From NCBI GenBank assembly GCA_944386645.1, contig CALXBW010000002.1, forward strand, positions 8,581-72,580: 64,000 bases of DNA, written 5' to 3'. The position numbers were made by a program, and so were the translations under genes. Below the pieces are notes generated by a model, which made no database searches, was not told the DNA's origin, and saw only the letters and a program-made list of their open reading frames with translations. Positions 710-44,252 of the stretch are shown in pieces; within the stretch, counting starts at the first letter, position 1; every line of letters begins with the position of its first letter. Source of the DNA: an uncultured Clostridia bacterium (lineage in GTDB: Bacteria; Bacillota; Clostridia; TANB77; CAG-508).

Positions 710-2596
<1,887 letters not shown>

Positions 2597-2621
2597 TTAA
2601 ATCTCTTATAAACATATATTA

Positions 2622-3140
2622 TTAATTTGCTACTATAACCATTGAATGTCTTATAACTTTATTGCCTATTTTATATCCAGCTCTAAATTCATCTTTAATC
2701 TCTTGTTCTCCTAAATTTGGATCTTCAACATGATTTACTGCTTCATGTATTTCAGGATCAAATTTTTTTCCTACGCTTTCAATTTTTTGAACACCAAAAG
2801 AATTTAAAACATCTTTTATTTGTTTATCTACAAGTTCAATTCCTTGTTTATATTGTTCATCTTTTGTTTGTGTGTTAACAGCTTTGTCTAAATTGTCTAC
2901 TGCTGGTAATATAGCTGATATAACATCAGCTAGTATAGAATTATATAATAATTCTCTTTCTTTAGAACTTCTTTTTTTGTAATTTTCAAACTCAGCCATT
3001 AATCTTTTTAGCCTATCTGTCGTTTCTTCTAATTCCTTATTAATTTTTTCTAGTTCAGTATTTTCTTGATTTACACTTTCTTCATTAATTGCTTGTTCTT
3101 TTTTTTCTTCATTTTCATTATTGTTTACATTTTCTTGCAT
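2622..3140 (-). CDS. grpE: Nucleotide exchange factor GrpE
   Basis: 172-aa ORF with acidic N-terminus and RLKRLMAEFENYKKR GrpE motif; lies between hrcA and dnaK. Confidence 0.92.
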   Translation of the reverse strand: MQENVNNNENEEKKEQAINEESVNQENTELEKINKELEETTDRLKRLMAEFENYKKRSSKERELLYNSILADVISAILPAVDNLDKAVNTQTKDEQYKQGIELVDKQIKDVLNSFGVQKIESVGKKFDPEIHEAVNHVEDPNLGEQEIKDEFRAGYKIGNKVIRHSMVIVAN

Positions 3141-3165
3141 TATATCCCTTCTTTCTTTTGATATA

Positions 3166-4191
3166 CTAATCTTTGTCCATTTGCTCCCATCTATTGTCTA
3201 GTATCTTCTTTATATATTTCATAACAGAAATTACTTTTGAGTAATCCATTCTAGTTGGACCAATAATTCCAATAGTCCCTAAATCTTTCTCATCAAGTGA
3301 ATTTTTAAAAGTTATAATACTAAGATTTTTTAATTCATCATACTCATTTTCATTTCCTATATATACATTTATATTTTTTTCATTTGTACTATTTAATACA
3401 GATAAAACAAGTTCATTTGTATCTAATATTTTTAAAACATTTCTTGCAACTTCTACATTATTAAACTCTGGAAAATCAAAAACCTTTTCTTTGCCTTCTA
3501 AATATATATTATTATCTGCATTAATTACTTTGTTTATTTCTTGTAATATTGGTCTTATTATTTTTAATTCACAATTTATTTCAGATATAATATATTCTTC
3601 CATTGAAGTATCTATTTGTCCTAATGGCTTTCCTCTTAATTTATTATTAAATATAAAATTTAAATTTTCAACTTGTAACTCTGTTATATCTGAGTCAAAT
3701 TTTATTATAGATTCTTTTATTATACCTGTATCTGTTAATATTACAGCCATTAATACTCTTGTTCCTAATAATACAAATTTTATATCTGTAATAATATGAG
3801 TAGATGTTTTTGGTCCAATCGCTACTGAAGTATAATGAGTAATCTCAGATAATGTATTTGTAGCTATTTTTGTTAGTTCTTCTATCTCATTTACATTAGC
3901 AGTTAATCTATTAGTAATATATCTAATTTCATCAAAACTTATATTATTAGAATTTAACAACTCATCTACATACAATCTATATCCTTTAGCAGAAGGTACT
4001 CTACCGGCTGATGTATGTGGTTTTTCAAGATATCCAGTTTTCTCTAAATTATTCATTTCATTTCTGATAGTTGCACTACTAAAATTAAATCCATAATTAT
4101 CTACTATAGAAGCTGAACTAACTGGCTCAGCAGTTCCAATATATTCTTCTATAATTGCTTGTAATATTCTTTTTTTCCTATCATCAAGCAT
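3166..4191 (-). CDS. hrcA: Heat-inducible transcription repressor HrcA
   Basis: 341-aa ORF starting MLDDRKKRILQAIIEEYIGTAEPVSSASIV; first gene of hrcA-grpE-dnaK-dnaJ; CIRCE immediately upstream. Confidence 0.93.
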   Translation of the reverse strand: MLDDRKKRILQAIIEEYIGTAEPVSSASIVDNYGFNFSSATIRNEMNNLEKTGYLEKPHTSAGRVPSAKGYRLYVDELLNSNNISFDEIRYITNRLTANVNEIEELTKIATNTLSEITHYTSVAIGPKTSTHIITDIKFVLLGTRVLMAVILTDTGIIKESIIKFDSDITELQVENLNFIFNNKLRGKPLGQIDTSMEEYIISEINCELKIIRPILQEINKVINADNNIYLEGKEKVFDFPEFNNVEVARNVLKILDTNELVLSVLNSTNEKNINVYIGNENEYDELKNLSIITFKNSLDEKDLGTIGIIGPTRMDYSKVISVMKYIKKILDNRWEQMDKD

Positions 4192-5588: not shown

Positions 5589-6120
5589 CTTCTATATCAC
5601 CTTCTAACTTTACATCTTTTTTTATATTCTTTATAGTTCTATATAGGACATTTTTAACATTAGATTCACTCATATATAATTGTTCTGCAATTTGTGATAT
5701 TTTTAATTCTGAATAATAATATAAATAAAAAATTTTAATTACAGTAATATTCTTTTGTTTAATATATTTCCAAACCTCTTGTGCATTTAATTTTGTTACT
5801 ACATCCATTTCTGTATTAAGATCAGATGGAATTTCTAATTCATATTTTTCATCATCAATAGAATAATTTTTTTGTTTATATAATAACCCATAATATCTTT
5901 GTATTTTCTTTTTTGCTATTCCTATTATATAATTTTGATAATTTTCTAATACTATATATTCCTTTCTTTTTAAGATTTTATATAGTTCTATATAAGTTTC
6001 TTGTAATAAATCATTAACATCATCAATATTTAAGCATTTGCAAACAATATACATTAAGGTGCGATTATATGTATTATTATATATTTCTTCAAAATTTTCT
6101 ATGGATAATTGAATACTCAT
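5581..6120 (-). CDS. ECF-type RNA polymerase sigma-70 family factor
   Basis: 179 aa with region-2-like QETYIELYK and region-4 HTH (SQIAEQLYMSESNVKNVLYRTIKNIKK). Confidence 0.7.
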   Translation of the reverse strand: MSIQLSIENFEEIYNNTYNRTLMYIVCKCLNIDDVNDLLQETYIELYKILKRKEYIVLENYQNYIIGIAKKKIQRYYGLLYKQKNYSIDDEKYELEIPSDLNTEMDVVTKLNAQEVWKYIKQKNITVIKIFYLYYYSELKISQIAEQLYMSESNVKNVLYRTIKNIKKDVKLEGDIEDV

Positions 6121-6565
6121 TTCTATCTCCTTTGTTATATAGTGCCTTATTTTTACAAAAAAGTTTCTTTTTTTTGTAAATTTTTATATTTTTTTCATAA
6201 TACCATAAAAATATTTTTCACTCAAGGAAAAAATAGGATATAACGAAATCGAAGATTTCTATATTCTCGTATATACTAAATTAATTTGCAATTGTCTGTT
6301 TCTCTCTTTCTGTTAATACTTGTATATTAATTACTTGAATTGGTTTCATCTCATAATACTACTCATGCAGCAAAAAAAATGAAATATATACAATATTTAA
6401 AATCTAAATTTTAATATATCGATATATTTCATTTTATACAAAAAAAGTTTTAAATAACTTAAAAGGGGATATATAATTAAATAAATTTTAATATTAATTT
6501 AAAATAATAAATCACCAACTTATATCGCATCTCTCCTTTCATTTAAAATTTAGTTATAATATTTC

Positions 6566-8897: not shown

Positions 8898-9560
8898 CTA
8901 TATTTTTCTAAAAACTCCACTTACTTTTCCAAGAATTTTACAATCATCTACAATTATTGGACTCATTGAACTATTTTCTGGTTGTAATCTTATATGATCT
9001 TTTTCTTTATAAAATGTTTTTACTGTTGCCTCATCTTCTATTAAAGCAACTACAATTTCTCCATTTTCTGCTGTATTTTGCTTTCTTACCAATATGTAAT
9101 CACCATCTAGAATTCCAGCTTCAATCATACTTTCTCCTCTAACAGTAAGCATGAAACTTTCACTGTTTCCAACAAAATCTATTGGTATAGGAAAAGTATC
9201 TGTTATATTTTCTACTGCTAAAATAGGAGCACCTGCTGTTATTCTACCTACAACTGGCACATCAACCATTTCTTTTCTTGTATATAACTCTTTTTCTGTA
9301 TTTTTATTCTCTAAACCACCTTTTAATACTTTTAAAGTTCTTCCTTTTTGTTGTTCTCTTTTTATAAAGCCCTTTTCTTCTAATTTATTTAAATATCCAT
9401 GTACTGTTGCTGTAGATTTTAATCCAACAGCTTTTCCAATCTCTCTAACAGATGGCGGATAACCATTTGTTCTTATTTGCTTTTGAATAAATTTTAAAAT
9501 AGCTTTTTCTTTATCATTTAGCTCGATATTAACATTATTTTTTTTCTTTCTCATATACAC
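8898..9560 (-). CDS. lexA: LexA repressor (S24 peptidase)
   Basis: w[36 protein letters not shown]; AG cleavage site ITAGAPI; S24 Ser/Lys region VRGESM...LVRKQ. Confidence 0.85.
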
Positions 9561-34527: not shown

Positions 34528-35253
34528 ATGGTTAATGTTCTTATTGCAGATGATAATCTATATTATGCAAAATCATTAATGGACTATGTTAATAATATTA
34601 ACAATAATATTAGAATTTGTAATATTGTAATTGATGGTAAAGAATTAATAGATATACTAAATTCATGCCAAAATATAGATGTAATATTATTAGATGTGAA
34701 TATGCCTATATATAATGGACTACAAGTATTAAAAATGCTTTCTAAAGAAGCTAGAATCAAATATAAAAAATCATTTATTATGATATCCGGCAGTAGTATT
34801 GTAGATGAAATTGAACCGGACAAAAGTAATTTAATTTATAATGCACTTTCAAAAAAACAAGATATGTCTGACATCATATATGAAATAAAAAAATTAATAG
34901 AATATAAGAATAATAAAAATATTCATTTAATAAGACAAAAAATACTAAATGAAATTTCATATCTAGGATACAACCCATCATATAAAGGAACTAAATACTT
35001 AGCTGATGCAATACAATACACTATTATTCATAATAATATGAATTTAGATAACTTAAATAGAGATGTATATCCATTTCTTGCACAAAAATATGAACAATCT
35101 ATACACAATATTAAATGTAATATTAATAGAGCAAATTTATATATGTACTATAATTGCAATTCTGATAGATTACGTGAATATTTTTCTTATTATGATGATG
35201 AAAAACCTAATACAAAAACTATTATAATTACTATTATGCATAAAGTTATTTAA
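34528..35253 (+). CDS. Spo0A_C-domain DNA-binding response-regulator-like protein with divergent receiver domain (Spo0A paralogue)
   Basis: Receiver-like N-terminus (VLIADDN...IDVILLDVNMP); C-terminus aligns to the Spo0A DNA-binding domain pattern (YLGYNPSYKGTKYLADAIQY...VYPFLAQKYEQS...KPNTKTIIITIM vs Spo0A IKGYxYLxEAI...LYPxIAKKYxTT...KPTNSEFIAMIAD). Confidence 0.6.
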   Translation: MVNVLIADDNLYYAKSLMDYVNNINNNIRICNIVIDGKELIDILNSCQNIDVILLDVNMPIYNGLQVLKMLSKEARIKYKKSFIMISGSSIVDEIEPDKSNLIYNALSKKQDMSDIIYEIKKLIEYKNNKNIHLIRQKILNEISYLGYNPSYKGTKYLADAIQYTIIHNNMNLDNLNRDVYPFLAQKYEQSIHNIKCNINRANLYMYYNCNSDRLREYFSYYDDEKPNTKTIIITIMHKVI

Positions 35254-35584: not shown

Positions 35585-36019
35585 TCATACATTAAACTGA
35601 GCCAATTTTTTTAACATCATAAGCTCAGCGTAAACTCTAGCAGCCCACATTATATCATGCAGAGCCAATTTCATTTTTTCTTCTTTCGATATGTTTCTTC
35701 CAAACAATTCAATTCTTTCCCTTGTTACAGGTAAAGACCTTTCTATCACTGACTTTGCAAAATAATCAGTGAACTTACCATCACAAACAAGGTTTAAATT
35801 TTCACCGAAACGATCTGCCAGAAGCTGGCAATGTCCGTAAAAGAAGTCACCTATAACAACATTATAATCATCTACTTTATTACAATTTCCAAAATACTTT
35901 TCGTAATAGGAAATTAAATCATTGAATTCCTTACTATCCACAATTACTTGTGATATAGCAATTTCCTGCTTTAAAATTTCGCTATTAAGGTGAGAACTTT
36001 CTTTAAATTTGTTTAACAT
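35585..36019 (-). CDS. Hypothetical protein, paralogue A of a duplicated pair (with 36782-37195)
   Basis: 144 aa; shares SLPVTRERIELFG...LKKLA C-terminal block and upstream promoter/5'UTR with paralogue B. Confidence 0.55.
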   Translation of the reverse strand: MLNKFKESSHLNSEILKQEIAISQVIVDSKEFNDLISYYEKYFGNCNKVDDYNVVIGDFFYGHCQLLADRFGENLNLVCDGKFTDYFAKSVIERSLPVTRERIELFGRNISKEEKMKLALHDIMWAARVYAELMMLKKLAQFNV

Positions 36020-36216: not shown

Positions 36217-36756
36217 TTAAATCATAATAAAAATATAAATAAAATATATAATTATTAAAATAATACCTCTTTTCCCATCTAACTCGCTATTTTCATTCAT
36301 TGCTGCAATTAGCTGTAATGCCATTGTTACAATTATTAAAAGTAACATAGGTCCATTAAAATCTGTTGCAAATGTTAAAGGATTAATTACTGCTCCTATT
36401 CCCACTAATAAGCATAAATTTATAATATTAGAACCCGAGATATTTCCTAGTAGCAAATCTGTTTCATTTTTCCTTGCTGATATAATACCTGTTATAATTT
36501 CTGGTAAAGCTGTACCAATTGCTACAATTGTCATGCCTATAAATCTTTCAGATAAACCCAAATTATTTGCAATTTCTATAGAATTATCAACAACAAAATC
36601 TGCTCCAAATTTTAATCCTAAAATTCCTACAATCATATAAAAAATAATTGTGTTAGTTGTATAATTCTCTTTTGATTTAACTTTCTTTATTAAATTACAT
36701 TGCAGACTAAAGCCCAATGCATATAAAGAAAAAAATGAAAAATAAAAGAGAGCCAT
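36217..36756 (-). CDS. Half-size Na+/Ca2+ exchanger (CaCA) family membrane protein (single alpha-repeat; possibly truncated)
   Basis: 179 aa with GMTIVAIGTALPEIITGIISARKNETDLLLGNISGSNIINL (alpha-repeat GTSLPE motif); typical CaCA proteins have two such halves. Confidence 0.5.
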   Translation of the reverse strand: MALFYFSFFSLYALGFSLQCNLIKKVKSKENYTTNTIIFYMIVGILGLKFGADFVVDNSIEIANNLGLSERFIGMTIVAIGTALPEIITGIISARKNETDLLLGNISGSNIINLCLLVGIGAVINPLTFATDFNGPMLLLIIVTMALQLIAAMNENSELDGKRGIILIIIYFIYIFIMI

Positions 36757-36781: not shown

Positions 36782-37195
36782 TTAATCTGCTAACCTTTTT
36801 ATGGTCATTAATTCTTTTAAAATTATTCCCACCACTTTCATATCATGTTTCCACAATATTTCCTTTTGTTTTTTACTGAGAATATTATTCTCAATAATCA
36901 CTCGTTTCACTGGTAAGGTCCGATCATATGCTTCCTTTTCAAAGCACTCTGAAAATTTAATTTCAGTTAAATGATCCAAATCATCACCAAATAACTCTGA
37001 AAGTCTCCTAGCCATTTCGTGAATCCTATCTCCTATCAACACAGAATACCGTGTTGGTGTTCCAGGAAAATTCGATTCACATTGTATAAGTAACACTTTA
37101 AACTCCAATGTTTTTGCAATTTTCTTTGCAATGTTTTTTTCGTAAGCAATTACTTCTGCCGGCAATACTGAACTTTCATTGAATAAATTAAACAT
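36782..37195 (-). CDS. Hypothetical protein, paralogue B of a duplicated pair
   Basis: 137 aa; TLPVKRVIIENNILSKKQKEILWKHDMKVVGIILKELMTIKRLA similar to paralogue A. Confidence 0.55.
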   Translation of the reverse strand: MFNLFNESSVLPAEVIAYEKNIAKKIAKTLEFKVLLIQCESNFPGTPTRYSVLIGDRIHEMARRLSELFGDDLDHLTEIKFSECFEKEAYDRTLPVKRVIIENNILSKKQKEILWKHDMKVVGIILKELMTIKRLAD

Positions 37196-37447
37196 AATAT
37201 TTTCCTCCTTAAAATAAGAAATATAAACACATGATGTCCTTAGAGGACCTAATTAAATTTTCATCAACATATTTATTACAGCATACTTTACATAATGTAG
37301 CAAGTACTTTTTTTTTAATTTTTCCTATTTTTCCTTATTATTCCCTTCTAATTGCATATATTATACATTTACTTTTTTACAACACTTCTAAATTATTTAT
37401 TTTAGCAATATATATTTATAATTTAAATTATAAACCACTATAGAGAA

Positions 37448-37657
37448 GCCAAAGAAATTAATATATATTATTATATAAGCAAAAAGTAATGTGCTTTTTA
37501 TGTAGTAACAATTCGTGGGGAGCAGCAAGCTTACAGTCTGTTATAGATATCTTTTTATACGTTTTGTTTCTATTTACAGACTGTGCGATGCTGGGAGTTA
37601 CAAATAAAAAACACATTACTTTTTGCTTAGTAAATAACTTTAGCATTTCTTTGGCGA
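37448..37657. ncRNA. Candidate ~210-nt structured RNA/inverted-repeat element (rod-like hairpin with internal bubble; 6S-RNA-like architecture or MITE)
   Basis: Outer arms 37448-37512 and 37598-37657 are imperfectly complementary (perfect 18-mer taagcaaaaagtaatgtg on both). G-rich unpaired segments (cgtggggagcagcaagc / gtgcgatgctgggag) flank an inner stem ttacagtctgt/acagactgtg and a ~34-nt terminal loop. Locally GC-enriched. Confidence 0.3.
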
Positions 37658-37830
37658 TTTAATTATGTGCTATTTTTTAATACGTATTTCAATATTTGAC
37701 TTTCATTTATCACCACCCAAAATATTGGTATTAATAATATTTTATCGTTTTTCTTTACTGTATCAGAGTTTATATAAATTTTAAAACTTTTGAATAGTCT
37801 TTTTGACATTTGCTAGATATAATATTTTTA

Positions 37831-38370
37831 TTATAATTGCTTTTCTACTAAATCTTGTAATGTATATGATATTATCTTCAATTCTTTATCTTTAGTATTT
37901 GCTCTCGATTGAACATTATCCGTTTCAGCTATAAAATTTACTATGTATTGTTCTATATATTTTTTAGTTCCTGATGAATAAGTAATATTGAAAATAATAT
38001 CTTCTATATTGTCTTTTCCTAATTCTATAGGGTCTATATTAGAAATTATTGATTGAGTTGGAGCTATAAAAGTATTTTTTATATGTTCAAATGGTCTACG
38101 TTCTGTAGAATAAGAATACTTTAATAAATCTAGATTACATTCAAACTTTTCTATAATAGCACCTGTTTGTCCAAAATTTCTCAATACAATATAATATGCC
38201 GGGTCTTGAAAATTTGTTACTCTTACATAAATTGTTATATATGGTCTTGTACTATTTTCTATCATTTTGCTATTTTGTTTTAATGTTATTACTACTGTTA
38301 TTACAGATATTACTGACAAAACAAACGATAAAATGCATAGAACTACATTTATCCAATCTGATATTTGCAT
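37831..38370 (-). CDS. Membrane-anchored hypothetical protein
   Basis: 179 aa; N-terminal TM VVLCILSFVLSVISVITVVITL. Confidence 0.5.
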   Translation of the reverse strand: MQISDWINVVLCILSFVLSVISVITVVITLKQNSKMIENSTRPYITIYVRVTNFQDPAYYIVLRNFGQTGAIIEKFECNLDLLKYSYSTERRPFEHIKNTFIAPTQSIISNIDPIELGKDNIEDIIFNITYSSGTKKYIEQYIVNFIAETDNVQSRANTKDKELKIISYTLQDLVEKQL

Positions 38371-38715
38371 AGAATTCTCCTTTTAATATATTCACTTTTC
38401 TAGATTTGTTTATATAAATTATATTTTAATATATATATTACATAATTATATAATTTTCATATTTATTTTTTTACCTTCAGTAATTATTGAATTTTAATAT
38501 TCTTCACAAAATTTTTAACTGCTTTTATCCTTCTATATTTATATTTTTTATTCATATACAGTTTATCTATTTAAACTTATTTTATAGTTTTCATTTATAT
38601 CTATTAAATGTATTTCTCAAATGAAAAATGGACCATTTTGGAACAGTATTATAATTGAAATTTGGACCACTTATTTACATAACCATTCTAACAATTATAT
38701 TAAAATTTATCAAAG

Positions 38716-38756
38716 TGTCAATACTAAAATAAATTGATAAATCAAGTATTGACACT
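38716..38756. repeat. Perfect 11-bp inverted repeat GTGTCAATACT-N18-AGTATTGACAC in a long AT-rich intergenic region
   Basis: Read directly; candidate operator or hairpin upstream of gene 38966-39958. Confidence 0.35.
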
Positions 38757-38965
38757 TATTCTAAATTTTAATTCTTATTAATTAAGAGGTTATATAGTTA
38801 TTTTATGTTATTCAAAAATCTTAATTATAATGTGGTCCATTTTTCACTCATTAAAAACATCTTGGATAGATAAGAAAATTTCATCGCTTATTACATTATT
38901 TTATTATTTTAACTATCTATGATATTATAGTATAGTTATTAACCGTATGATAATGGAGGTGTATA

Positions 38966-39958
38966 ATGGAACAATTTATAAAAAATTTAGAAATACAAAA
39001 CATAGATAAAGAAAAGATTAATCATTTAAAAAATTTAATAAAATCAGTTTGCGGAAGTTTTTATATAATAAAACCTAAAAAAAATTATTTTAGATTTCCG
39101 TATTTATTATATGTTCCAAATCAATTTGATAGTACCACTCTAATAATGCATGGAAATAATTTAGCTTTAGAAGAAGGTAATATTTTAAACATATATTCTG
39201 CAATATTTGAAACTACATCTGAAGCAGGTTATGATTTACTATCTTTAAATCAACCTATACTTGTACCTATCACATCAAACTATATTCATCCAGCTAATAA
39301 TAACATGCATGAATTTTTCCCTATGCAAGCTTCAAGAAACGTTTTATTTTGTAAAGATTCTACAAATACATATTATAAACTATTTGAACAAATCAATAAT
39401 ATGATTGAAGATGCCCAAAATATAATAGAGTCAAAATATAATGTGCATATTGATGATAAGATAATATGCCATGGTTTTTCATCTTCTTCAAAGTTCGTAC
39501 TTAGATATGCAACATGTTATCCAAGTAAAGTTTCTTTATTAATTGCTGGCGGATTCGGAAATCAAGCTATACTTCCTTTAGAAAATATTACTATTAATAA
39601 TACTTGTATTGATTTAATATATCCCGTAGGAATAAAAGATATAAAGTATATTACTGGAAAGGATTTTGATAAGAGTAGTTTTTATAATTTAAAACAATTT
39701 TACTTTATAGGAGAACTTGAAGATTCCTCTAATGATACAGCTTTTAACTTTAGACATACAGATCCAGACATACAAGAAATATATAAAAATGTTTTTGGTT
39801 TTGATTATCAATCTCGTTTTGACCAATTGAAAAAAATATTTAAAGAACTAAATTATACTAATGTAGAATTTATTAGATATGCAAACTTTGGACATAGTGC
39901 TACCCCTGGCATAAGTCATTCTACTGAATTGATAAAGAACTACAGAAAAATAGAGTAG
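38966..39958 (+). CDS. Hypothetical protein (possible alpha/beta-hydrolase fold; GFSSS nucleophile-elbow-like motif)
   Basis: GGAGG RBS then ATG; 330 aa; KIICHGFSSSSKF motif is only weak evidence. Confidence 0.5.
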   Translation: MEQFIKNLEIQNIDKEKINHLKNLIKSVCGSFYIIKPKKNYFRFPYLLYVPNQFDSTTLIMHGNNLALEEGNILNIYSAIFETTSEAGYDLLSLNQPILVPITSNYIHPANNNMHEFFPMQASRNVLFCKDSTNTYYKLFEQINNMIEDAQNIIESKYNVHIDDKIICHGFSSSSKFVLRYATCYPSKVSLLIAGGFGNQAILPLENITINNTCIDLIYPVGIKDIKYITGKDFDKSSFYNLKQFYFIGELEDSSNDTAFNFRHTDPDIQEIYKNVFGFDYQSRFDQLKKIFKELNYTNVEFIRYANFGHSATPGISHSTELIKNYRKIE

Positions 39959-39995
39959 TAAGAAATTTTTCAAATCCTTACTACTCTAATATTTT
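39953..39995 (+). terminator. Hairpin overlapping stop codon of 38966-39958
   Basis: gagtagtaag-aaatttttcaaatc-cttactactc followed by taatattttt. Confidence 0.4.
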
Positions 39996-40017
39996 TGTGT
40001 ATGGTGCGGTTTTCTTG

Positions 40018-40043
40018 CAGCTTACGAACTCTGTTCTCTTTCT
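40018..40043. repeat. Left inverted-repeat copy (CAGCTTACGAACT-C-TGTTCTCTTTCT) matching reverse complement of 43600-43648
   Basis: Direct comparison: rc(43600-43648)=CAGCTTACGAACT-gtaaaaagtttgtaagttgtttat-TGTTCTCTTTCT; left copy lacks the 24-nt insert. Confidence 0.45.
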
Positions 40044-40148
40044 AAAACTTCATTTTATTTAATTAATAGCAATCCTATTTTACTTGATGAATCTAAACTA
40101 TTGATTTTAATTATTGAAAAAAATGTATATTTCAAAATTATAGTTAAA

Positions 40149-41357
40149 CTATAGATTATTCCATTCTCTTTCTAAAACAAATCCTCTATTGTTTCTTAAT
40201 ACTTGTAAAGCAGCTAAGTTTATTTCAATACAATTCTTAAAATCTCTATCTTGTCCTGAAATACCAAACTTTCTTATAAATTCAATATTTATTCGAGCAG
40301 TCTCTAATAAATTTTCTTGTGCAATAATACTTTCATTGAAAGAATCTCTATTTAAAATATCTATTTGATATTTTAAGCTGTTTAAATAATGTCTGTGAGA
40401 TTCCCCTTCACTATATGATGTACTGGTTGGTAAAGCACCATTAAATAAGACATTAGAATATTCATCATTTAGACTTGAATCTGGTTTCATTCTATTTAAT
40501 ATACCATTATTAAATGCTAAATCCAAAAAAGAGATTTTATATTCAGATAATGCTTGAGGATAATAGTACCATTTATTTCTTTGCTTTGGTTTAGACTCTT
40601 CATCTTTAAATTTATTATCAAATTTTCTTACATTAAGCCAAGTTCCTGAAGCAATAGCATCAATCTTAGTAGGTGCAAAAGATAAAAATTGATGATTGGC
40701 ATATCCTAAAATTACCTTTTTTCTTTGTAACTTTAATCCAGCACATAAATCCATTAAATTTGTCATCCAAGTAATTTCATCGTCTATTAAATATTTATTT
40801 TCTGGATGATATGCTACAACATAGTATCCATCTACATCCCATTTTTCGGTCTTTTCAAGTATTCTTTCAACTATCTCATTACTTCCTAGTAACGCATTAC
40901 TTGGTAAAGCTATTGTCATTATTCTATTTTTATCTGTCATAATCTCTTTTGATTTATCTACCAATACCTTATTTTTTTCAAACCAATTACTATCAATTTC
41001 AGATTCCATTATACTTGGTATAATATATTCTATAGTACCAGCTGTATCATTATTCTCTTTAATTTTTTTTAACAATTGTTCTTCTTTTGATATATTTTCC
41101 TTTTTCCCAATATTGGTATAGTTAACCAAATTATGATATCCATACATATCTAAATTTTTATGATTTTGCTTAGGATAATAGCATTGAGGATCAAATAAAA
41201 GATTTATATTATGATTTCTAAACTCTCTACACCATTTCCACAATGCTTCTTTTTTTATATCTCTTGGACTTAAAATTACAGTTGCTTTTCCCCATTTATC
41301 AGCTAAATCCAAAGATAGTTGTTTCATACCATAACCAAATTGTAAATATAATTCCAT
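40149..41357 (-). CDS. Hypothetical 402-aa protein, translationally coupled (TAATG) to upstream Ser/Thr kinase gene
   Basis: ATG at 41357-41355 overlaps kinase stop (gaaTAATGg); MELYLQFGYGMKQ...; no family recognised. Confidence 0.55.
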   Translation of the reverse strand: MELYLQFGYGMKQLSLDLADKWGKATVILSPRDIKKEALWKWCREFRNHNINLLFDPQCYYPKQNHKNLDMYGYHNLVNYTNIGKKENISKEEQLLKKIKENNDTAGTIEYIIPSIMESEIDSNWFEKNKVLVDKSKEIMTDKNRIMTIALPSNALLGSNEIVERILEKTEKWDVDGYYVVAYHPENKYLIDDEITWMTNLMDLCAGLKLQRKKVILGYANHQFLSFAPTKIDAIASGTWLNVRKFDNKFKDEESKPKQRNKWYYYPQALSEYKISFLDLAFNNGILNRMKPDSSLNDEYSNVLFNGALPTSTSYSEGESHRHYLNSLKYQIDILNRDSFNESIIAQENLLETARINIEFIRKFGISGQDRDFKNCIEINLAALQVLRNNRGFVLEREWNNL

Positions 41358-42211
41358 TATTCCTCTCCCATAATTAAAGTTTCTTTTAGCCCTTTCAACC
41401 ATTCTAATGCTTTTTTAGCAGAAGGTGGCCTTCTTGATATTTGTTTCATCATTAGTGTTTCAATCAGACCCATAAACTGTTGTTGTGTATCTCCATCTAT
41501 TTGTAGTCTTTCTGGAGTTATAGTTACGGTTTTATACCATATTTCATTATATGATTGTTCTGTTCCAGTTCTATATGGATTAACTCCAAATATACATTCA
41601 TAAATCACAACACCTATAGAAAATAAATCCGTTCTAGAATCTATATTTCTATTCTCATAATAATTTAATAACTCTGGAGCTCCATATCCTGGAGTGTGTG
41701 GTGATTTTGTATTAAGGACAAATGTAAGAGATTGCATATCCAATGCTTTTGCAATTCCAAAATCTATCAAATAATATTTGTTGTTGCTCATTAATATATT
41801 TTCAGGTTTTATATCTCTATGAACTATATTATATTCCTCCAATTTACTTTCAGTAATTAATAATGTCTCCAATAAAGTATAAGCTTCTTTCAAGTTGAAT
41901 TTATGTTTTTTTATAAGATTTTCTCTTAAGCTATTTCCATCAATAAATTGTTCTAAAATATAAATACATTTATTCCCGATAAGGTTAATTTCTCCAGTAT
42001 CATACATTTTAGGAACATTGGGAATATCATATTTCGTTACAATTTCAATCTCTCTAATTACTCTATCAACATCAGTATCAGCTTTCACAATTTTTAGAAC
42101 ACAATCACCATAGTCTTTTGATTTAATTTTATATACATCTTTTTGTGAACCAGGATTTAATTTATCAATAATTTTTATTCCTGAAATCTGTTTTTCTATC
42201 TCATCTTCCAT
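41357..42211 (-). CDS. Hanks-type (eukaryotic-like) Ser/Thr protein kinase, stand-alone catalytic domain
   Basis: 284 aa; catalytic loop HRDIKPENIL; DFG (LIDFGIAKAL); APE-like GYGAPELL; degenerate Gly-loop and VxK (CVLKIVK). Confidence 0.8.
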   Translation of the reverse strand: MEDEIEKQISGIKIIDKLNPGSQKDVYKIKSKDYGDCVLKIVKADTDVDRVIREIEIVTKYDIPNVPKMYDTGEINLIGNKCIYILEQFIDGNSLRENLIKKHKFNLKEAYTLLETLLITESKLEEYNIVHRDIKPENILMSNNKYYLIDFGIAKALDMQSLTFVLNTKSPHTPGYGAPELLNYYENRNIDSRTDLFSIGVVIYECIFGVNPYRTGTEQSYNEIWYKTVTITPERLQIDGDTQQQFMGLIETLMMKQISRRPPSAKKALEWLKGLKETLIMGEE

Positions 42212-42224
42212 TTTATTTTCCTTT

Positions 42225-42950
42225 CTATATACAAATTTCTTTTCCTATAATTTCCTCTATTACCAATGAAGAATAACTATTAGGTATTTTATTTCTTCTC
42301 GCTTTCATAATTAAATTAAAGTTCTTATTTTTTTCTTGATACATTCCAATTCCTAAATTATCAAACTTGTTTCTAATAACATTATTAGGTTCTTGTTTTG
42401 TATTAGATAATACATAACACTCAGATGAAAATCGCAAATTATTTATTGCTTGTGTTAAAGCACTATTCCATTGATTTATTTTTGCTTCAACAGTTTCTAT
42501 TTTAGTAATCGCAAAGAAATTTTTTCTATCGCAAATTTTCCATAGTTTATTATTTCTTTCAATCATTTTAGCATCAAGCAATCTAGTAATAGTCTCTAAA
42601 ATTGTACTTTCATTAATACCTAGTTGTCTTTTTAATTGACTATTACTTATACCATTCTTCATATAGATGTGATATAATATTTTTAAATCTTGATTATTTA
42701 GCTTTTTTCTGTTTTCATTCCAATTATCAAAATTTTTTTTATTATATTCAACAAATATAATATCTGGATATGAAGATTCTATTTTTAATTCTTCAAAAAT
42801 TGCCATACTTATATCTTTATTTTTGTTATATTTTTCGAATTTATTTTTTTTATAATTTATAAATCTATTAACCAACTCTAATTCTAAACCTTGAGTTTGA
42901 TTTCTTGTCAAAATATTTGATTTATTATTAAATTCAATAATATCATTCAT
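42225..42950 (-). CDS. Hypothetical protein with predicted winged-helix (MarR-like) segment; first gene of the kinase operon
   Basis: 241 aa; GISNSQLKRQLGINESTILETITRLLDAKMIERN resembles wHTH; AGAGGGA RBS; 13-bp gap to kinase gene. Confidence 0.5.
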   Translation of the reverse strand: MNDIIEFNNKSNILTRNQTQGLELELVNRFINYKKNKFEKYNKNKDISMAIFEELKIESSYPDIIFVEYNKKNFDNWNENRKKLNNQDLKILYHIYMKNGISNSQLKRQLGINESTILETITRLLDAKMIERNNKLWKICDRKNFFAITKIETVEAKINQWNSALTQAINNLRFSSECYVLSNTKQEPNNVIRNKFDNLGIGMYQEKNKNFNLIMKARRNKIPNSYSSLVIEEIIGKEICI

Positions 42951-43147
42951 AATATCCCTCTATTCTTTAGTATAAAATTTATCATAAAAAATAAAAAATT
43001 TCAATATTTCATAAATACTTATCTATTCTTCAAAGTAATTGAATATTGTATAATTAAATGCACGTTGGTAACATAAAAATATAGACACATAATTAAAAAT
43101 CATTTAAAATGTTAGTTGACTAGACTAAACATTGGAGGTTTTTAATT

Positions 43148-43513
43148 ATGTGTCAAGAACAGTATAACACAAAAAGAAAAAAATCTAAACAATTAACTTA
43201 CAAAGATAGAATAAAAATTGAGGCATTGTATAATGAATTGAATTTAACATATACAGAAATAGGAAAAATAATAGGAAAAGACAGAACAACTATCAGTAGA
43301 GAAATAAAATTAGGGTTAATAGAATTAGAAACATCATATTTGCCAGTATGGAAGTATTGTTCAGAAGTAGCGCAAAGAAAAAACGAAGAAAATGAAACAG
43401 CTAAAGGGACAAACTTAAAAATTGGAAAAGATATAAAATTGGCTAATTTTATAGAGAAAGAAATTAAAGAAGGGAAATTTTCACCAGAAGTAATAGAACA
43501 TAAAATAAAATAA
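43148..43513 (+). mobile_element. IS30-family transposase N-terminal fragment (HTH region only; DDE domain missing) - IS remnant/pseudogene
   Basis: 121 aa; LTYKDRIKIEALYNELNLTYTEIGKIIGKDRTTISREIKLG matches the IS30 transposase N-terminal HTH pattern; ORF ends after ~120 aa where full-length enzymes are ~340 aa. Confidence 0.55.
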
Positions 43514-43597
43514 AACAAGGCAAATATTCAACAACGTTGTGTTTTAAAACGATTTACAACTATATAGATAAAGAAGTATAAAAAATTGTCCTCCTTT

Positions 43598-43645
43598 CCA
43601 GAAAGAGAACAATAAACAACTTACAAACTTTTTACAGTTCGTAAG
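43598..43645 (-). terminator. Terminator of tRNA operon (hairpin cttacgaact-gtaaaa-agtttgtaag then T-rich); also right inverted-repeat copy
   Basis: 10-bp stem with 1 mismatch immediately 3' of tRNA-Phe on the minus strand, followed by ttgtttattgttctctttc. Confidence 0.45.
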
Positions 43646-43656
43646 CTGTTAGAATA

Positions 43657-43732
43657 TGGTGGCTTCAAGTGGAATCGAACCACTGACACGGGGATTTTCA
43701 GTCCCCTGCTCTACCAACTGAGCTATGAAGCC
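43657..43732 (-). tRNA. tRNA-Phe (anticodon GAA), CCA encoded
   Basis: rc reads GGCTTCATAGCTCAGTTGGTAGAGCAGGGGACTGAAAATCCCCGTGTCAGTGGTTCGATTCCACTTGAAGCCACCA. Confidence 0.9.
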
Positions 43733-43755
43733 ATGAATTTTCATTATAAAAAAAA

Positions 43756-43832
43756 TGGCGACCCGGAACGGGCTCGAACCGTCGACCTCTAGCGTGACAG
43801 GCTAGCGTTCTAACCAACTGAACTACCGGGCC
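43756..43832 (-). tRNA. tRNA-Asp (anticodon GTC), CCA encoded
   Basis: rc reads GGCCCGGTAGTTCAGTTGGTTAGAACGCTAGCCTGTCACGCTAGAGGTCGACGGTTCGAGCCCGTTCCGGGTCGCCA. Confidence 0.9.
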
Positions 43833-43855
43833 GTATAGGAAATAAAGTAAAAAAA

Positions 43856-43931
43856 TGGTGGGCGCAATAGGGCTCGAACCTATGACCTCCTGCTTGTAAG
43901 GCAGATGCTCTCCCAGCTGAGCTATACGCCC
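43856..43931 (-). tRNA. tRNA-Val (anticodon TAC), CCA encoded
   Basis: rc reads GGGCGTATAGCTCAGCTGGGAGAGCATCTGCCTTACAAGCAGGAGGTCATAGGTTCGAGCCCTATTGCGCCCACCA. Confidence 0.9.
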
Positions 43932-43942
43932 ATCTCTTTGAC

Positions 43943-43978
43943 ATTGACTAGTATACTAAATTTTATTATCGTTGTCAA
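43943..43978 (-). promoter_or_regulatory. Sigma-A promoter of the tRNA-Val-Asp-Phe operon
   Basis: Minus strand TTGACA-N17-TATACT ending ~12 nt upstream of tRNA-Val 5' end. Confidence 0.45.
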
Positions 43979-44043
43979 TAATATTTTTAAAATTTTTTTA
44001 ATTTTTTTACTTATTGAATATTTTTAAGCAATTTCTTCGATGA

Positions 44044-44066
44044 ACGGGCGAACACTGTTCGCCCCT
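44044..44066. repeat. GC-rich hairpin GGGCGAAC-ACTG-TTCGCCC (shares AACAGTGTTCGCC core, in opposite orientation, with 27164-27196)
   Basis: Read directly; no adjacent U-tract; GC island in AT-rich DNA. Confidence 0.4.
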
Positions 44067-44252
44067 ACACTTCTACTACAACTATTTTATTATTTTATAA
44101 AAAGATTAAAAAGTCTAAGGGTGGGGGCAAAAATAAAGTCCACCAAATTGGGTATGACCCAATTTGAATATTATAATTTTATGATAATCAACTACAGTTC
44201 AATAAGTATCTAAATGAAATCCCAATAGTTAATATTATTCATTAATATGCTT

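Follow-up and report, generated by a model that had tools for sequence, protein, structure and literature searches.

Intergenic DNA of bacteria harbors several families of palindromic repeats, including REP/BIME, REPIN doublets, ERIC, the Correia elements of Neisseria and the RUP and BOX elements of Streptococcus pneumoniae. Families of the REP, ERIC, Correia or RUP type reach tens to hundreds of copies per genome, and some such repeats act as terminators or mRNA stabilizers. In Correia and RUP elements, the termini are defined and accompanied by target duplications; REPINs are served by a cognate RAYT transposase. Canonical terminators are composed of G+C-rich stems of 5-14 bp and loops of 3-8 nt.

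We analyzed an element, called H here, in a 64-kb stretch of DNA from an uncultured Clostridia bacterium ("the window," i.e., the whole stretch under analysis). By its sequence, H is best classed as a member of a small, lineage-restricted and previously undescribed family of palindromic intergenic repeats of ~150-210 nt. By analogy, it appears closest in behavior to the REP/REPIN, ERIC, Correia-type and RUP repeats and to bidirectional terminators. Like REP, ERIC, Correia and RUP, the copies of H are imperfect palindromes in the ~100-200-nt range, confined to intergenic DNA and found at different sites in relatives; they would be 3′-UTR hairpins co-transcribed with the upstream gene, and decayed copies occur. 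Unlike them, H is present once in ~90 kb, with no shared termini, duplication or transposase found, and it has no sequence similarity to them (no Rfam match and no real BLAST match among plasmids and phages).

H resembles a bidirectional Rho-independent terminator in having an A-tract and a U-tract paired in its basal helix, in its location between the end of a transcription unit and the next promoter, and in that a CM built from it cross-matches ordinary gene-end hairpins of this genome. It departs from canonical terminators by being a 43-pair multihelix rod with a conserved 13-nt bulge and a loop of 16-34 nt, and by forming a sequence family rather than a convergent structure.

Anatomy and surroundings of the palindrome

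Read from the sequence, H is a 208-nt imperfect palindrome within a 635-nt spacer between two minus-strand genes. Minus was set as its sense strand, as both flanking genes are encoded there. The features of the element and its spacer are as follows.

37448-37655, minus strand: H, the whole palindromic element (from folds, inverted repeats and sequence)
37448-37458, no strand: outer 11-bp arm of H, GCCAAAGAAAT, pairing with 37645-37655
37645-37655, no strand: partner of the outer arm, ATTTCTTTGGC, then UUCUCUAU on the minus strand
37459-37647, minus strand: family-homologous core of H (BLAST, nhmmer, alignments A2 and A3, CM R1)
37604-37625, minus strand: 5′ side of the 22-bp basal helix with the A-tract, CAAAAAGUAAUGUGUUUUUUAU (RNAalifold consensus)
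37480-37501, minus strand: 3′ side of the basal helix, AUAAAAAGCACAUUACUUUUUG, with the U-tract at its end, a terminator-like tail
37510-37522, minus strand: conserved 13-nt unpaired C-rich bulge in the 3′ arm, sense CUCCCCACGAAUU
37533-37584, minus strand: inner 9-bp stem and variable loop, sense ACAGUCUGU/ACAGACUGU
37831-38370, minus strand: upstream gene, 179 aa, with an N-terminal membrane anchor and no family; stop codon 175 nt before H
36782-37195, minus strand: downstream gene, 137 aa, no family, with its own conserved promoter and leader
37330-37434, minus strand: flank downstream of H, remnant of a promoter-like module (local alignment to L199 6575-6690)

The first-pass annotation, made from the letters alone, had described a rod-shaped element of ~210 nt with near-complementary arms and a shared 18-mer, which agrees with the 208-nt palindrome and with an exact 18-mer, TAAGCAAAAAGTAATGTG, at 37476-37493 with its complement at 37612-37629. 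This 18-mer matches twice in the 64 kb, both times in the arms of H, with 0.08 matches expected. The inner stem, put at 9-11 bp around a loop of ~34 nt, measures 9 bp (ACAGTCTGT at 37533-37541 and ACAGACTGT at 37576-37584 on the plus strand) around 34 nt. The local GC content was likewise correctly described as above the surroundings (0.38, vs 0.17-0.25 around H and 0.25 for the whole window). The long arms are AT-rich and include a short GTAAC/GTTAC helix. On the plus strand, two G-rich stretches (37510-37529 and 37585-37597) had been thought unable to pair with each other. The asymmetric loop is there, as a 13 x 3 nt internal loop between 5-bp helices in the consensus fold, but the stretches are not wholly unpaired, since CAGCA/TGCTG and two G-C pairs form.

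Folding against shuffled sequences, a comparison also proposed at first pass, gave -73.0 kcal/mol for the plus strand (shuffles, -40.5 ± 4.0; z = -8.05) and -73.6 kcal/mol for the minus strand (z = -12.5); none of 200 shuffles folded as well on either strand. One Logan contig of a related lineage (L213, 2127-2215) terminates exactly at the center of the hairpin, indicating that the palindrome breaks short-read assemblies. Among 14 independent metagenome contigs from this organism, 12 match the spacer at 100% identity, and L026 and L030 have one substitution each.

The promoter and leader of the downstream 137-aa gene occupy ~135 nt before its start codon, and H is outside that leader. We rejected the idea that H belongs to the 5′ leader of this gene, as the conserved leader is only ~135 nt long and homologue loci (L068, L073 and L201) are without H. 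A 144-aa gene (35585-36019) is a paralogue of the 137-aa gene, in a family without Pfam match, and the promoter/leader regions of the two are ~80% similar. The window lineage alone has a half-size Na_Ca_ex gene of 179 aa (36217-36756) between the paralogues, which are direct neighbors in L068, L069 and L201.

Copies in related lineages and conservation of the fold

Examination of the loci of homologues of the H-flanking proteins yielded a family of four copies, three intact and one decayed, which occupy three genomic sites in four lineages. The copy of the third lineage (L195:3111-3294) is 81% identical to H; that at L069:5261-5423, in a lineage that includes L211-L213, is shorter and 70% identical. 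CM R1 scored the three intact copies at 165.6, 160.8 and 120.6 bits. Both the L195 and the L069 copies are found directly after an acyl-CoA-synthetase (AMP-binding) gene, ahead of the tRNA promoter. The spacer between the AMP-binding gene and the tRNAs in the window (43932-44252) is unrelated in sequence to these two copies, and H lies 6 kb away. In the fourth lineage (L199/L200:~9017-9093), one arm is well kept and the other has decayed; this copy follows an HD-domain gene and sits between convergent genes, a further point of likeness to terminators. The outer 11-bp repeat GCCAAAGAAAT is seen in the window copy only and is absent from L195 and L069. The loci sampled from the P0129 lineage (L201-L210, covering ~20 kb around this region), where the flanking proteins are >90% identical, do not contain H.

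The first-pass annotation had proposed looking for additional copies. These were found at other sites in relatives, but not a second time in ~90 kb of this genome: nhmmer and the CM detected no copy beside H in the 64-kb window and ~25 kb beyond its ends. In the other related loci (~200 kb), neither nhmmer nor the CM, run over 292 kb, detected additional copies. The 18-mer gave chance single matches and no true match in one genome each from 185,579 species; a 17/18-mer search of viral contigs also returned chance single matches, and three more viral scans returned nothing. A metagenome scan with ACAGACTGTAAGCTTNCTG listed 120 loci, all of them chance matches and nearly all from one abundant unrelated human-gut sequence. 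The family is hosted by a few related Clostridia of the gut, a spore-forming clade with 25% GC that is known from metagenome contigs alone; the window itself, also at 25% GC, encodes SpoIID, a Spo0A-like protein and sporulation sigma factors.

The fold was compared among the intact copies using alignment A3, from which RNAalifold derived 43 consensus pairs. Across the three copies, 96.9% of the cells are paired, a value that 1 of 500 shuffles reaches, and five stem pairs, four of them in the basal helix, are changed on both sides. In controls in which the partners were slid by 1-3 columns, 34-51% of the cells were paired, with 0-1 compensated pairs. The intact copies do not differ in the inner stem, and the loop varies in length (34 nt in the window, 33 nt in L195 and 16 nt in L069, the last of these loops being fully self-complementary). 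These observations, from n = 3 intact sequences, are suggestive but not conclusive of a hairpin maintained by compensatory substitutions. The 13-nt bulge reads CUCCCCACGAAUU in the window, UCUCCACGAAU in L195 and UUCCCACGAAU in L069. It is kept in sequence despite having no partner on the opposite arm, and it varies exactly in its C-run (CUCCCC, UCUCC, UUCCC).

As the DNA itself is palindromic, covariation does not tell an RNA hairpin from a DNA hairpin. Both strands have similar fold energies in every copy; with no preference for the sense strand, a role at the RNA level is not separable from one at the DNA level by this measure. H would represent a low-copy, structure-maintained palindromic repeat of a very AT-rich, uncultured clade of Clostridia.

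Gene ends and candidate roles

All four copies are in sense orientation behind a gene, at 175 nt (window), ~15, ~15 and ~41 nt from the stop codon, and all three intact copies are also upstream of the next promoter. In L069, the sigma-70 promoter of the tRNA operon (11 of 12 positions) begins 34 nt after the copy. We detected no other terminator-like site separating the AMP-binding gene from the tRNA promoter in L069 or the 179-aa gene from H in the window. All three intact copies keep the motif CAUUA(C/U)UUUUU in their 3′ arm, paired with the A-tract, and each of their sense hairpins has a terminal U-tract of U5-U8. The only other matches of the CM are weak, and they are plain A-tract/U-tract hairpins at gene ends, including some between convergent genes (e.g., L211:10613-10647 and L201:18919-18953). 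Together, the placement after stop codons, the A-/U-tract helix where no other terminator-like site is present and the nature of the CM matches point to a terminator or 3′-end hairpin. We put at about 0.5 the probability that H is a dispersed palindromic repeat serving in this way, possibly as a bidirectional intrinsic terminator.

In such a mechanism, transcription of the upstream gene would yield an RNA that folds into the long hairpin, at the base of which the A-tract, stem and U-tract, judging by their anatomy, would cause intrinsic termination. Since the design of H is symmetric, it may terminate transcription in both directions. As a 3′-end hairpin, it may also block exonucleases, and it may insulate the upstream gene from the next transcription unit. 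Some features sit less easily with a plain terminator: an AU-rich stem adjoins the U-tract, a simple terminator consensus scan does not call H, and a hairpin of 150-210 nt with a conserved bulge far exceeds what a terminator needs.

The bulge might have a function of its own. H could be a mobile 3′-UTR RNA module of a new class, that is, a self-spreading terminator hairpin whose C-rich bulge CUCCCCACGAAU is functional; we consider this improbable. The bulge CUCCCCACGAAU could then be an anti-Shine-Dalgarno seed acting on mRNAs, or a site for a mobilizing or processing protein. If H were such a module, related Clostridia would be exchanging ready-made transcription-unit boundaries together with a regulatory function, and with a functional bulge H would be a tractable example of a transferable boundary of this kind.

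Alternatively, H could encode a structured regulatory RNA, either 6S-like or an sRNA derived from a 3′ UTR. In the sRNA version, the unpaired C-rich bulge (CUCCCC) would recognize target mRNAs by pairing at their G-rich ribosome-binding sites; RsaE/RoxS and other sRNAs of Firmicutes typically carry unpaired motifs rich in C. The covariation of the fold, the conservation of an unpaired C-rich bulge on the gene-sense strand and the constant sense orientation behind genes are all in keeping with a regulatory RNA. The variation of the bulge exactly in its C-run speaks against it, as does the lack of any Rfam match, RF00013 included. No convincing promoter of its own was found, the best upstream match (9 of 12) being at chance level in that region, and the L195 and L069 copies begin ~15 nt after a stop codon. 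In addition, a position that is not fixed, absence from close lineages and one half-decayed copy are unlike a core regulator. We give little credence to a regulatory RNA.

The 6S-like version had been favored in the first-pass annotation because H shares with 6S RNA a length of ~200 nt and a rod-like shape with closing stem, internal loop and terminal stem-loop. It fell on several counts. A check against RF00013, proposed there, gave no match at the gathering score over the whole window, and no other Rfam family matched H at that threshold; searches with all Rfam families, RF00013 among them, returned nothing at E ≤ 10 over 37200-37900 and nothing at E ≤ 1 over the L195 and L069 copies. The large two-sided central bubble of 6S RNA is absent from the consensus fold, in which the 13 x 3 nt loop is one-sided. 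Unlike 6S RNA, H also has no convincing promoter of its own and no single stable locus, being found at three loci, in decayed form at one, and absent from the sampled loci of close relatives in the P0129 lineage. The chance that H is a 6S RNA is very small, and for annotation it should not be taken as the 6S RNA of this organism.

A 62-aa open reading frame within H had been deemed probably spurious, and the comparison bears this out: only 24 aa of it remain in L195, and L069 has no counterpart. In protein libraries of 5.8 billion and 1.8 billion entries, the peptide matched only itself, other hits being long repetitive proteins. We rejected a protein-coding or small-toxin function on these grounds, the open reading frames not being conserved between copies. 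Those called inside H should be dropped; one is already in public protein sets, as P0008.

Module exchange beside the tRNA cluster

H is located at the far end, i.e., the distal junction, of a strain-specific island of ~6.3 kb (window ~37335-43656) that directly follows a tRNA Val-Asp-Phe cluster (43657-43931), the island starting after tRNA-Phe. Its genes, and a second repeated module close to the tRNAs, are the following.

43148-43513, plus strand: HTH_38 protein
42225-42950, minus strand: MarR-like wHTH protein
41357-42211, minus strand: Ser/Thr kinase, PD-T4-6/mad6-like by PADLOC
other island proteins: 417 aa, 330 aa (plus strand) and 179 aa
44045-44064, minus strand: G+C-rich hairpin module, also at L195 ~3325-3345 and at L199 ~5930-5950 and ~6520-6540

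PADLOC matched the kinase to PD-T4-6/mad6-type models and the wHTH protein weakly, and nothing else on the island. At the same spot, the cargo of L201 is a sigma factor, a 368-aa protein and an HTH_5/HMA/P-type ATPase set, that of L199 a 259-aa protein and LytR; L069 has nothing there.

H could be a site acting at the DNA level, a cruciform or recombination site, for the exchange of islands beside the tRNA cluster. Consistent with this, all copies are found no more than a few kb from the tRNA Val-Asp-Phe hot spot, whose cargo differs by lineage. The window copy marks the distal junction of the island, the L195 and L069 copies are just across the tRNA cluster in the same orientation, and the two strands fold equally well. 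However, the clustering may be a sampling artifact, because every fetched locus was anchored in this region. No lineage has H on both sides of the island, and no integrase or recombinase was found in the island, where Pfam gives only HTH_38, MarR-like and kinase domains. H also misfits the R-box consensus of integron attC sites (RYYYAAC/GTTRRRY). A site of this kind seems a long shot. An integron attC site, retron msr/msd, a plasmid single-strand origin (ssoA) and an IS110 bridge RNA were also considered and seem unlikely: the R-box and CS-6 consensus motifs do not occur in every copy, and neither an integrase nor a reverse transcriptase, Rep protein or IS110 recombinase was found near H.

A miniature inverted-repeat transposable element (MITE) was the other possibility raised at first pass. 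H would then be a nonautonomous MITE- or REPIN-like element with its transposase elsewhere and no host function. Part of this picture holds, namely a repeat family at different sites. Homologous copies occur at three unrelated sites in four close lineages, and their presence varies between lineages whose flanking proteins are >90% identical. In the window copy, the ends form an 11-bp terminal inverted repeat, another copy survives as a decayed relic, and exchanged modules abound in the region, which also holds a DUF772 transposase fragment in L069-L071. Target-site duplication and shared termini, on the other hand, did not turn up in the copies, nor did high copy number in the ~90 kb covered of this genome, and the one transposase seen nearby is the DUF772 fragment. 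No copy is bordered by a target-site duplication, and no empty site was found: the joined flanks of H align to L199 on the downstream side only, such that neither an insertion boundary nor a target duplication can be defined. The L195 copy replaces other sequence rather than being inserted into it, and the 11-bp outer repeat is not common to the other copies. Within the DNA searched, the numbers also argue against transposition, with one copy in the 64 kb and ~25-kb flanks, none in the other ~200 kb of related loci, no true match of the 18-mer in the 185,579 species genomes and none in viral contigs, plasmids or phages. Compensatory changes in the stem, finally, are unexpected for transposase-binding termini. 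We consider a true MITE or similar transposable element unlikely, if still worth weighing.

The flank of H is informative here. The 105 nt after H align to a promoter module of L199 (6575-6690) with a score of 42.5, vs 16.4 ± 2.6 for shuffles, and in L199 this homologous module precedes a different island gene. The homology makes the spacer a mosaic, and recombination among intergenic modules would fit this arrangement at least as well as transposition. For the dispersed terminator-like repeat that we favor, the copies may be pictured as having spread through recombination between intergenic modules or through some transposition mechanism, in the island-exchange hot spot beside the tRNA Val-Asp-Phe cluster. 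Exchangeable modules make up the spacers around this hot spot: hairpins resembling terminators, promoter modules and a small GC-rich hairpin. Segmental duplication together with the 3′ end of the AMP-binding gene, first suggested by a lenient BLAST search, was rejected, as the upstream-flank alignment scored 16, vs 19.7 ± 2.5 for shuffles.

The G+C-rich hairpin module consists of GGGGCGAACAGTGTTCGCCC followed by GTTCATCG(A/C)AGAAATTGCTTAAAAATATTCAA. In three lineages, it immediately precedes the promoter of the tRNA operon; L069 is without it, and L199 has an extra copy downstream of the tRNAs. Contigs L070-L072 break within the tRNA cluster. The DUF772 (IS5/IS1182-type) fragment comprises the N-terminal part of a transposase (L069:7265-7684, L070, L071 and L211:10212-10613); its insertion, behind the 144-aa gene, is confined to the L069 lineage. 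In L201, a large serine recombinase of 541 aa (1990-3615; Resolvase/Recombinase/Zn_ribbon_recom) and a few small genes split a polysaccharide-deacetylase gene, which encodes 123 aa there and 271 aa elsewhere, suggesting an integrated element. The window also encodes an orphan Spo0A-like response regulator of 241 aa (34528-35253, plus strand) with receiver and Spo0A_C domains; it adjoins an ECF sigma factor and DUF4179 pair and is kept in all lineages sampled.
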